64,000 nucleotides of DNA, taken from positions 64,001-128,000 of the forward strand of contig JAHPZH010000008.1 of NCBI GenBank assembly GCA_019058315.1, written 5' to 3'. This document shows positions 15,349 through 17,710 of this stretch, one piece after another (position 1 is the first letter of the stretch; the number at the start of each line of letters is the position of its first letter). A program made the translations under genes and the position numbers. The notes beneath the pieces are model-generated. The model saw nothing but the letters and a program-made list of their open reading frames with translations. It did not search any database and was not told the DNA's origin. This stretch comes from Candidatus Helarchaeota archaeon (GTDB lineage: Archaea > Asgardarchaeota > Lokiarchaeia > Helarchaeales > RDOG01).

Positions 15349-16500
15349 CTAAATTTTGAATTCTTCTGTAAATCTAAAAAATGTATCTTTCAATAATCCT
15401 CCCAAAAATGAAATTAGATTTTGTTTTGTAGATTTAAATCCTACTGGAACATTTTTTTCATCGATAAAGCCAAAGAATAAGGTTGATGCATCAGATACAA
15501 TGCCAAAAAGGTCTGCAGGAGGATATTTTCTCAATTTAATATTATTATAATCTTTATAGCGATCCAGATTTAAGATTTGATCTCTATTGCCTATTTCAAT
15601 GCTAGTTGCAGCCTGAATCATTATTCTGGAAGGTAAAGAGGTCAAATCTAACTGCTCTAATTGTGTGAGTTTTGGAATAAATAAAATAATGTTTCTTTTT
15701 GTATTTTTTATTATATCTTTAATACATTCAATAGCTTGCCTTTCCCCGAAATATATAGTTTCTATCTTTTTCCCTTCATAAAAAGCAAGTTCCTTATTTT
15801 GAGAATTAATTTGAGACTTTAAATCTTCGATTTGTATTTGTAGTTGTTTAACACTTAATTCGGGAACTAAATCAGATTTTTCACTTAATTGTTTAATTTT
15901 TAAAGAAGCTTCATTTAATTTTTCTTTTAATCCGTATATTTCATCATCTTTATTTTTCAAAGTTTCTTCTAAATCCGTAAGTTTTTTTGCAAATTTAGGA
16001 TCTTTAGTTGTTAATGAACGTTCCCTCTCATATTCGCGAATTTTTTCTTCTAATTTGGTTAATTCTTGAGTTTTAGATTTTTCTTGGTCTAATTTTTGTT
16101 CAAGTTCATTATTCAATTTATTTATTCTATCTATTTCTCTGGATTTTTGTTCACTTTCATCCAAATACTTATTTTCTATTTCTTTACACCGATTATCAAC
16201 AATGGAATATTTCATTTCCCAGTCTTTTTCGACCTTTATGAGTTTATCCTGTAATTCCTTAACTTTTTCTAAGCTGGATGTTGAATATTGTTTGATAAAT
16301 TCATCCTTTTTTTCGAGTTCAGGTTTTATGCTTTTTAATTCTACATTTAATTCCATCTTTTCTCTTATTAGATTTTGAATATCTGTCGCATATTTTTTTT
16401 GAATTTCCAGAAGTTTAAGCTTTAACTCACTAATTAATTTGTCTTTTTCTTTTATTGTATTTCTTAATCGCCATACATCTGCTTCTTCATCTAGACTCAA
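15349..16500 (-). CDS. long coiled-coil protein with C-terminal PLD/TrmB-like alpha/beta domain
   Basis: About 240 aa of E/K heptads, then IKDIIKNTKRNIILFIP...FGIVSD; no HKD motif. Confidence 0.8.
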   Translation of the reverse strand: MSLDEEADVWRLRNTIKEKDKLISELKLKLLEIQKKYATDIQNLIREKMELNVELKSIKPELEKKDEFIKQYSTSSLEKVKELQDKLIKVEKDWEMKYSIVDNRCKEIENKYLDESEQKSREIDRINKLNNELEQKLDQEKSKTQELTKLEEKIREYERERSLTTKDPKFAKKLTDLEETLKNKDDEIYGLKEKLNEASLKIKQLSEKSDLVPELSVKQLQIQIEDLKSQINSQNKELAFYEGKKIETIYFGERQAIECIKDIIKNTKRNIILFIPKLTQLEQLDLTSLPSRIMIQAATSIEIGNRDQILNLDRYKDYNNIKLRKYPPADLFGIVSDASTLFFGFIDEKNVPVGFKSTKQNLISFLGGLLKDTFFRFTEEFKI

Positions 16501-16585
16501 CTTATATCCCCGTTTCTGTTTTGTTTCATGTAAATATAAAATATTACTAATAGTTTAATTTAAAGAAAGGTATTCAGTTTTTATA

Positions 16586-16654
16586 GGCGTTCAGACGGCT
16601 CTTTCCAAAATCATCATCTTCAACTGACTCACAGAACCTGTTCTTCATTACGCC
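16586..16654 (-). ncRNA. C/D-box 2'-O-methylation guide sRNA
   Basis: Minus strand GGCGT-A-[C: ATGAAGA]-ACAGGTTCTGTGAGTCAG-[D': TTGA]-AG-[C': ATGATGA]-TTTTGGAAAGAGCCGT-[D: CTGA]-ACGCC; 5-bp terminal stem; GC-rich island in AT-rich intergenic DNA. Confidence 0.88.
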
Positions 16655-16676
16655 ATGATTATATAATTTTGAAATC

Positions 16677-16691
16677 TAATAAATATTTTTA
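16677..16691 (-). promoter_or_regulatory. BRE/TATA-like promoter of the sRNA
   Basis: Minus strand AAAAATATTTATTA lies about 24-35 nt upstream of the sRNA 5' stem; the AT-rich background weakens the call. Confidence 0.45.
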
Positions 16692-16736: not shown

Positions 16737-17009
16737 TTAATAATTGACAAAAAATTTATCAAATTCGTTTCTAAATTTTTCCCAATTTACTTCTACTTTA
16801 GTAACTCTTGCGTATGTAGGACCTTTATGTAAATATTTTATTAATTCTTTTAGTTTATCTTCCTCTCCCTCCGCAATAACTTCTACTCTTCCATCTCTAA
16901 GATTTTTAGCCCAACCTTTTAAACCTAATTTAGATGCAAATTTTTCCGTTTCCCATCTAAAGAAAACTCCTTGAACCCTCCCCGATACGAATGCATGTAT
17001 TCTTTTCAT
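16737..17009 (-). CDS. acyP: acylphosphatase
   Basis: VSGRVQGVFFR and GWAKNLRDGRVE motifs. Confidence 0.95.
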   Translation of the reverse strand: MKRIHAFVSGRVQGVFFRWETEKFASKLGLKGWAKNLRDGRVEVIAEGEEDKLKELIKYLHKGPTYARVTKVEVNWEKFRNEFDKFFVNY

Positions 17010-17383: not shown

Positions 17384-17710
17384 ATGAAATTTTGCCCAGA
17401 ATGCGAAAATCTTTTATATCCAATGAGTAAAAAAAATGGAAATTTTTTGGTATGTAAATTTTGTGGTTATGAGATGAAGCTAGACACTAAAGAAGATGTA
17501 TATGAAGATTATAGAATACCAGAAAAAATTAATCATCAAAGTGGAGTAGAAATCATAGAAGAGGACGAACCACGTCCAAAAGTAACAATTGAATGTCCTA
17601 AATGTGAGAATGATAAGGCATTACACTGGGAGAGGTACAATGATGATGGCGAAATCATTCTTTTATATAAATGTACAAAGTGCAAACATGTTTGGGCCGA
17701 AACTGACTAA
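17384..17710 (+). CDS. transcription factor S / RpoM-family double zinc-ribbon paralogue with non-canonical acidic hairpin
   Basis: MKFCPECENLL...CKFCGY and CPKC...YKCTKCKHVW; RYNDDGE replaces QTRxADE. Confidence 0.85.
   Translation: MKFCPECENLLYPMSKKNGNFLVCKFCGYEMKLDTKEDVYEDYRIPEKINHQSGVEIIEEDEPRPKVTIECPKCENDKALHWERYNDDGEIILLYKCTKCKHVWAETD

Follow-up and report, generated by a model that had tools for sequence, protein, structure and literature searches.

The described systems closest to the locus reported here are the box C/D sRNAs of archaea, exemplified by the sR families of Sulfolobus and Pyrococcus, which are the methylation guides of the L7Ae-Nop5-fibrillarin system (reviewed in PMC7994747 and PMC4644070), and, among eukaryotes, SNORD49A/B, which have been assigned to human 28S Cm4456 (Cm4426 in the old numbering; PMC9941101). 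The literature that we searched contained no catalogue of Asgard C/D sRNAs. The DNA under analysis, a stretch of 64,000 nucleotides referred to below as the window, comes from an Asgard archaeon, as indicated by a full-length eukaryote-type actin (PF00022, 448 bits) for which no archaeal control genome gave a match, together with a G+C content of 30% and a 23S rRNA of 3159 nt. At positions 16586-16654 it carries a previously unannotated locus that is likely to be a genuine box C/D sRNA of an archaea-wide family directed at helix 90 of the 23S rRNA, and that would guide methylation of host C2720 (E. coli C2510, human C4456). The locus adds a member to a known class, without involving a new mechanism. 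The data on which this reading is based are the anatomy of the locus, the enrichment of its architecture in the genome, the presence of the protein machinery, conservation in related strains, the existence of orthologues, and one covariation in a relative; transcription, RNP assembly and methylation are what we infer from them.

The predicted sRNA, 69 nt long, is delimited by its sequence and by motif statistics and is read on the minus strand, from 16654 to 16586 (G000:C9:80586-80654). The four boxes and the GGCGU/ACGCC stem listed by the first-pass annotation are all present, but it is the minus strand that has to be read. Starting from the 5' end, the RNA comprises the first strand of the terminal stem (GGCGU, 16650-16654), a single A, box C (AUGAAGA, 16642-16648), an 18-nt spacer (16624-16641), box D' (UUGA, 16620-16623) and the dinucleotide AG; its 3' part is made up of box C' (AUGAUGA, 16611-16617), a 16-nt spacer with GGAAAGAGCCGU at its end, box D (CUGA, 16591-16594) and the second strand of the stem (ACGCC, 16586-16590). 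The spacer preceding box D is antisense to CGGCUCUUUCCA. All five base pairs of the terminal stem are Watson-Crick and four of them are G-C, in a genome with only 30% G+C. Box C departs from RUGAUGA once, with A for U at position 5, an A for which U2 of box D is a possible partner; the UGA/GA core is preserved, and the AUGAAGA/CUGA pair can form the tandem G-A/A-G kink-turn, closed by the terminal stem. Box D is invariant across the family alignment, and the fold z-score of the locus is -1.9.

Several box registers are possible at this locus, in which the internal UUGA and AUGAUGA are both present. The run GAUGAUGAUUUU (16608-16617) can also be read with AUGAUUU (16608-16614) as box C', which leaves a D spacer of 13 nt, the very length found in the G005 and G041 orthologues described below, and a GUGA at 16629-16632, inside the D' spacer and 9 nt past box C, offers an alternative D' box. 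Depending on the register, the D spacer is therefore 16 nt (AUGAUGA) or 13 nt (AUGAUUU) and the D' spacer 18 nt (UUGA) or 9 nt (GUGA), about 10-12 nt being usual. The spacers of 18 and 16 nt that had been described as unusually long guides do have those lengths in one register, but, given the 9- and 13-nt alternatives, the long guides are probably an artefact of the choice of boxes.

The locus is intergenic. It is flanked on one side by an acylphosphatase gene (16737-17009, minus strand; Pfam PF00708) and on the other by an ORF for a 383-aa coiled-coil protein (15349-16500, minus strand), whose first start codon lies 86 nt downstream of the element on the same strand, and for which no relatives were found in the genome collection. 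A TATA-like element upstream had been proposed by the first-pass annotation, and an A/T-rich TATA/BRE-like block, AAAAATATTTATTA, is indeed found on the minus strand at 16677-16690, 23-36 nt upstream of the predicted 5' end, but as a putative promoter it is weak, carrying no statistical weight at 30% G+C, and related strains differ from it at 16690 and by an insertion after 16685. At about 700 nt from the sRNA, on the opposite strand, the window also encodes a 108-aa protein with RPB9-type and TFIIS-type zinc ribbons (17384-17710, plus strand; TFS/RpoM-like).

In most respects the RNA resembles the archaeal box C/D sRNAs: it has the C/D'/C'/D order, a terminal stem with a kink-turn, a size in the range of 50-70 nt and a stand-alone intergenic gene; its antisense element stops one nucleotide before box D, and the N+5 rule applies; and the site that it targets belongs to the domain V methylation hotspot of helices 90-93. 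It differs from them in its box C (AUGAAGA), in spacers that are not the canonical 12/12 nt, in a guide-target duplex broken by a 1-nt bulge or mismatch, and in a D' half that lacks a target. Its host differs as well from those in which such sRNAs have been described, being a mesophile-type Asgard archaeon with an A/T-rich genome.

Whether such an arrangement of short motifs exceeds chance was assessed by a scan of the 5.8-Mb genome for C and C' boxes with at most one mismatch each to RUGAUGA, NUGA and CUGA boxes, spacers of 9-20 nt and a terminal stem, with eight third-order Markov simulated genomes as the chance control. With a stem of at least 5 bp, five real loci were found versus a mean of 0.5 in the simulations; with a G+C-rich stem, two versus none in the eight simulations; and, when the G+C-rich stem was combined with a limit of one mismatch over all boxes, only the locus in the window versus, again, none in eight. 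Two further loci retrieved by the architecture are convincing as guides. The box C/D sRNA at C5:56821-56871 (minus strand) has AUGAAGA as both C and C' and a GGAC/GUCC stem, and its 12-nt D guide forms 10 contiguous pairs with 23S 2150-2159 (CCAAAUGCCUUG, domain IV), with N+5 at A2153, which we take to be the site of yeast snR13 Am2281. In the box C/D sRNA at C5:532373-532422 (minus strand) the D guide is complementary to the anticodon arm of an intron-containing tRNA-Met(CAU), and N+5 falls exactly on the wobble C34; this is a guide of the sR-tMet type, as in Haloferax. The genome thus has a small family of C/D sRNAs in which AUGAAGA is a box C variant in use. A genome-wide count of rRNA-antisense 9-11-mers adjoining YUGA gave no enrichment over reversed or complemented controls, such a count being too crude for a small family. 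An Rfam search of the whole window rendered no match at gathering thresholds, and around the locus only weak generic C/D-box matches.

The proteins with which such an RNA would act, L7Ae, Nop5 and fibrillarin, are all encoded in the genome. L7Ae was identified with 107 bits, and the fibrillarin gene (310 bits) adjoins that of Nop5 (Nop domain, 217 bits) in a Nop5-fibrillarin operon. The proposal of a stand-alone box C/D sRNA is thus borne out by the intergenic position, the enriched architecture, the encoded machinery and the conservation of the locus in related strains.

The D guide, UGGAAAGAGCCGU (16595-16607, minus strand), pairs with GUCGGCUCUUCC in the 5' strand of helix 90 of the host 23S rRNA (gene at C5:105496-108654, minus strand; 3159 nt), which reads GAUGUCGGCUCUUCCUACCC at 2712-2731, and N+5 is C2720. 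Counting from box D, positions 2-9 of the guide are joined to CGGCUCUU by eight Watson-Crick pairs, the A at position 10 stands opposite a C, and positions 11-13 pair again (G-C, G-U, U-A), so that the duplex, at about 23S 2716-2728, consists of 8 contiguous pairs, a mismatch or a 1-nt bulge made by an extra A, and 2-3 further pairs. At least 9-10 nt of complementarity to the host 23S had been called for by the first-pass annotation, and the 8 contiguous pairs fall just short of it (10-11 are reached with a mismatch or bulge). The extra A stands out against the family consensus GGAAGAGCCG, and the other family members found all lack it. Among the 23S rRNA, the 16S rRNA, 40 tRNAs and the full 16S rRNAs of relatives, the best match of the D guide is the peptidyl-transferase segment of 23S, GAUGUCGGCUCUUCC, and the strongest duplex across the rRNAs is that at the helix-90 site with the extra A bulged out (8 + 2 pairs, -16.3 kcal/mol). 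In this comparison the tRNAs were those found with RF00005, and the 16S rRNA was represented by its two assembled parts, with the complete 16S of relatives standing in for the unassembled middle. Since the motif starts at 2503 in the annotated 2905-nt E. coli 23S gene, the C opposite guide position 5 is at standard position 2510. The earlier assignment of the D guide to the peptidyl-transferase region, with N+5 at the equivalent of C2510, therefore holds, both as the best match among rRNAs and tRNAs and after this check of the E. coli numbering.

The pairing with the host 23S is not significant by itself. In shuffled guides, an 8-mer at positions 2-9 appeared in 7-11% of the trials and any 8-mer spanning position 5 in 26-34%, and the duplex energy was matched or bettered by 7 of 40 shuffles, so that host pairing alone has a P of about 0.1-0.25. 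The assignment of the target is made because of the orthologues and of one guide/target covariation, not because of the host pairing alone. Elsewhere in the genome, C10:62133 matches the D guide in antisense over 12 nt without a mismatch; it was rejected, chance alone being expected to give about 0.7 matches of this kind, and the site being antisense to an ORF. As to the RNAs searched, the 16S gene is split over two contig ends (C12:1-900 and C5:1-392), with about 260 nt of its middle unassembled, and is unlinked to the 23S gene, located 105 kb inside C5. Around 25 tRNA genes are clustered on one strand at C3:627500-631800, many of them 95-150 nt long and presumably intron-containing, and several of the tRNAs of this cluster found by RF00005 are missed or mislabelled by ARAGORN.

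The pattern GGAAGAGCCG-NN-UGA was sought, together with a control pattern, in 400 genomes of the Asgard phylum, in which it showed no overall excess over the control. Its matches cluster in five of the seven genomes of one Asgard family, in five of the six of another, in G005 (same order as the host), and in G052 and G158 (same class), and in all 13 of the 13 clustered matches the core lies directly 3' of a C or C' box and before a D or D' box, inside a clear C/D sRNA. Among the matches listed, the module was also found in many MAGs of Nitrososphaeraceae, Nitrososphaera and Nitrosocosmicus, in other Thermoproteota, and in one Bathyarchaeota MAG (L128). The matches listed by collection-wide scans for TGATGA-N(3-12)-AGAGCCGNCTGA were mostly chance occurrences in bacteria, and only archaeal ones with the full 10-nt core were retained. 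Applied strictly to 161 genomes of the class, this pattern returned only the locus in the window; it missed the relatives because their C' boxes are degenerate (AUGAUAA in G005, AUGAUUC in G041). A sequence model of the C'-to-D module, run over 151 genomes of the class, recovered the additional orthologue in G041. The RNA from the window shares with these helix-90 guide sRNAs (G005, G041, G052, G158, the two Asgard families, Nitrososphaeria and Bathyarchaeota L128) a core, GGAAGAGCCG, that abuts a D or D' box, but these two Asgard families and Nitrososphaeria carry the guide to helix 90 in the D' position and not, as in the window, in the D position. The bathyarchaeal sRNA has UUGA as its D' box and carries the guide in the D position after a degenerate C' box, UUGAUGA occurring in D-position members besides AUGAUNN.

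The likeness is closest to the sRNAs of G005 (L045:1446-1519) and G041 (L325:1495-1565, minus strand), with which the RNA in the window shares D' = UUGA, C' = AUGAUNN, a D spacer of 13 nt and CUGA, that is, the arrangement C'(AUGAUNN)-13 nt with GGAAGAGCCG-CUGA, preceded by a UUGA D' box, that is typical of G005/G041-type sRNAs. With AUGAUUU as box C', its C'-to-D module is 24 nt long, the same as in G005, from which it differs by a 1-nt shift and by the extra A in the core, and it scores 21.3 bits (E = 0.002) against the model R1, which was built including the window sequence. The RNA ends of the orthologues differ from one another and yet stay complementary (CAAG/CUUG in G005, GAC/GUC in G041), and both orthologues stand in gene contexts unrelated to that of the window. 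In contrast to them, the RNA of the window has the extra A in its guide and a D' guide unrelated to their helix-69 guide.

The orthologue in G041 provides the covariation. Its guide reads GGAAGAACCG, and the 23S rRNA of the same genome (L352; G041:C62:6290-6304) reads GAUGUCGGUUCUUCC, with U replacing C at the helix-90 equivalent of E. coli C2510; that this stretch is 23S was verified by alignment (226 of 261 positions identical). The A at position 5 of the G041 guide pairs with the U of the target, giving 10 contiguous pairs, while a canonical guide would be mismatched at N+5. This compensatory change in guide and target shows that the family really reads the helix-90 site.

The distribution of the family in the class is patchy, no homologue having been detected in the closest genome, G001 (94% complete), or in 127 genomes of the largest family. 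A BLAST search of the locus against 40 relatives yielded only matches to the A/T-rich flank or to GAUGAUGA; occurrences of GAGCCGNCTGA in G001-G004 and G006 were coding or chance matches only, including one in G003 (L313) that was rejected as lying antisense inside a 294-aa ORF; and a weak second match of the model in the host genome (C9:171095) lacks a D box. In the Nitrososphaeria loci (L103, L145, L215, L258 and others) the helix-90 guide is in the D' position with a spacer of 15-18 nt, the D guide, GAUUAUGAGUC, looks complementary to the CAU-anticodon loop (tRNA-Met C34), and the terminal stem GGAUGC/GCAUCC is conserved.

Among related strains, the locus is present at about 95% identity in contigs of two sediment metagenomes from another study (runs X2 and X3); of the public runs recorded as RNA, none was found to contain this DNA. 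Among the best-supported 40 of 127 differences, 2 are substitutions in the 69 nt of the sRNA and 18 are in the 167 nt of flanking intergenic DNA (plus indels), a difference in density with a one-sided Fisher P of 0.035 that would rise to 0.17 if the up to 2 further differences of the X2 contig that could fall in the sRNA did so. Both substitutions are in the D' half: that at window 16621 (RNA position 34) turns the D' box UUGA into UUAA, and that at window 16628 (RNA position 27) is a G>A change in the D' spacer. Among the same best-supported 40 of 127 differences there is no change in boxes C, C' and D, the D guide or either strand of the stem. No indel at the AAA appears among the strain differences listed, and the extra A is therefore not an assembly error. 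A more divergent contig of 103 nt aligns only over 16582-16655, with unalignable ends, so that the conserved block fits the predicted boundaries of the RNA.

The D' half behaves differently. The first-pass annotation had been unable to place its target, and this is still so: with both D' registers, comparison with 23S, 16S, 40 tRNAs and the complete 16S of relatives, duplex energies and genome-wide antisense matches gave nothing better than shuffled guides, the D' duplex energy being reached by 28 of 40 shuffles. In G005 the D' guide forms 10 Watson-Crick pairs and one G-U with the helix-69 stem (host LSU 2119-2130), and G041 has a related guide, the common element GUUACUCC being complementary to the helix-69 stem GGAGUAAC. 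The D' spacer of the window RNA has no GUUACUCC-like complementarity to helix 69, and a search of the host genome for a separate helix-69 guide found none. Since no target is found and both strain substitutions fall there, one of them destroying UUGA, the D' half appears to be degenerating or retargeted, under relaxed constraint, and the D half appears to be the conserved and functional part. Below threshold, Rfam matches the G005 orthologue best with plant snoR38 and C. elegans ceN61, by way of its D' guide AGUUACUCCUGU, which fits the helix-69 stem (host LSU 2119-2130) better than an snR38-type site.

Among eukaryotic RNAs, the one compared here is SNORD49. The statement in the first-pass annotation that its guide ends in GCCGU is confirmed by the consensus of RF00277, which reads AUAGGAAGUGCCGU before a D' box CAGA, with the guide ending in GCCGU, and the site assigned to SNORD49A/B is Cm4456 (PMC9941101). 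The antisense core of SNORD49, GGAAGUGCCGU, located before its D' box, is nearly the same as the D guide of the window, and the predicted target nucleotide is the same in both, human 28S Cm4456 corresponding to E. coli C2510. This correspondence rests on our own offset arithmetic from the A-loop (Gm4499 = G2553); an explicit E. coli equivalent of Cm4456 was not found stated in the literature searched. The guide cores of the locus and of RF00277 agree, and the window RNA is predicted to direct methylation of the LSU cytidine in GAUGUCGGC*UCUUCC. The two RNAs differ in that SNORD49 has its guide in the D' position, with D' = CAGA, and the window RNA in the D position. SNORD49 is, moreover, intron-encoded and longer. 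The comparison with the Rfam family that the first-pass annotation had suggested came out negative: RF00277 gave no match at the locus even at E <= 10 (gathering threshold, 37 bits) and, genome-wide, only an 11-bit match elsewhere. For the sRNA of an Asgard relative, L052, SNORD49 is the best match of all Rfam families, although below threshold (20.1 bits, E = 0.006), with both guide regions partly aligned.

The locus had been put forward as a possible Asgard counterpart of a eukaryotic snoRNA target. The predicted target nucleotide is indeed the same, but it is not specific to Asgard archaea: the site is targeted also in Nitrososphaeria and Bathyarchaeia, and so no Asgard-specific link to eukaryotes follows. 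Moreover, any guide to an invariant rRNA segment has to share this core, so that the likeness to SNORD49 does not demonstrate common descent. That the helix-90 guides of Asgard archaea, Nitrososphaeria and Bathyarchaeia and the eukaryotic SNORD49 all go back to one ancestral, vertically inherited C/D RNA is, in our estimation, quite doubtful. Were it true, the helix-90 guide would join a very small number of snoRNAs whose guide and target can be followed back to eukaryotes' archaeal ancestor.

If the locus works as the family does, a transcript of about 69 nt would fold back on itself, bringing box C (AUGAAGA) together with box D (CUGA) in a kink-turn that has GGCGU/ACGCC as its closing stem, and would bind L7Ae and then Nop5 and fibrillarin. 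The 12-13 nt directly upstream of box D would base-pair with the helix-90 5' strand of the 23S rRNA, probably during ribosome assembly, and fibrillarin would 2'-O-methylate the nucleotide opposite guide position 5, C2720 of the host. In this lineage the guide would do so with one extra A, through 8 bp, a bulge or mismatch, and 2-3 bp, and the D' half, a helix-69 guide in relatives, appears to have lost its target.

The extra A, found in no other family member, is also what suggests that the guide could be decaying. The RNA might be a real, expressed C/D sRNA in which this nucleotide abolishes methylation at helix 90, leaving an orphan or decaying guide, a transient chaperone of rRNA folding, or a guide to some other target. 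The modest pairing with 23S, 8 contiguous pairs that are not significant alone, would fit such a state, as would a D' half already devoid of the helix-69 guide of G005 and G041 and with its D' box mutated in a sister strain; C/D guides are, besides, known to turn over fast (PMC7994747). We regard it as rather unlikely, because the D guide, box D, C' and the stem show no listed change next to flanking intergenic DNA that is about 11% different, which indicates that selection continues on the D half, and because 8 G+C-rich pairs at positions 2-9 plus 2-3 more are within the usual functional range of archaeal guides. A mismatch is present in the vertebrate SNORD49-28S duplex as well (bioRxiv 10.1101/2020.09.21.303073), which is a precedent for an imperfect duplex at the helix-90 site. 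A less far-reaching possibility than common descent with SNORD49, and likewise doubtful, is that the conserved bulged duplex of this lineage tunes methylation at the peptidyl-transferase centre, or uncouples it from the binding of the RNA as a chaperone there.

Another reading is that short motifs fell together by chance in A/T-rich intergenic sequence and that no functional RNA is made; in its favour are the shortness of the boxes, the lack of an Rfam match at gathering score and a fold z-score of only -1.9. It would have to account, however, for a locus whose equal in quality none of the eight simulated genomes produced, for a G+C-rich stem within a genome of 30% G+C, for a block conserved relative to its flanks in other strains, and for orthologues that repeat the guide and the box arrangement with one compensatory change, and we consider it very improbable. 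Slighter still is the probability that the element is not a methylation guide but a regulatory L7Ae-binding kink-turn, in the leader of ORF 15349-16500 or in the trailer of the acylphosphatase gene. L7Ae reportedly binds mRNA leaders in archaea, and the 86 nt to the first start codon of the ORF, on the same strand, would be compatible with such a leader; but such a regulatory element would have no need of a second, C'/D' pair or of ten conserved nucleotides antisense to 23S, the orthologues of G005 and G041 are in unrelated gene contexts, and the downstream ORF itself is without relatives in the genome collection.

The repertoire of rRNA modification in Asgard archaea bears on the origin of the eukaryotic snoRNA system, and the locus in the window, with its orthologues, offers a concrete example, in which a helix-90 guide common to several archaeal phyla coincides with the site of human SNORD49. 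That genes of this kind go undetected by standard models in the A/T-rich genomes of Asgard archaea is explained by the variant box C AUGAAGA and the degenerate C' boxes, and the same sequences can be used as seeds for finding such sRNAs.
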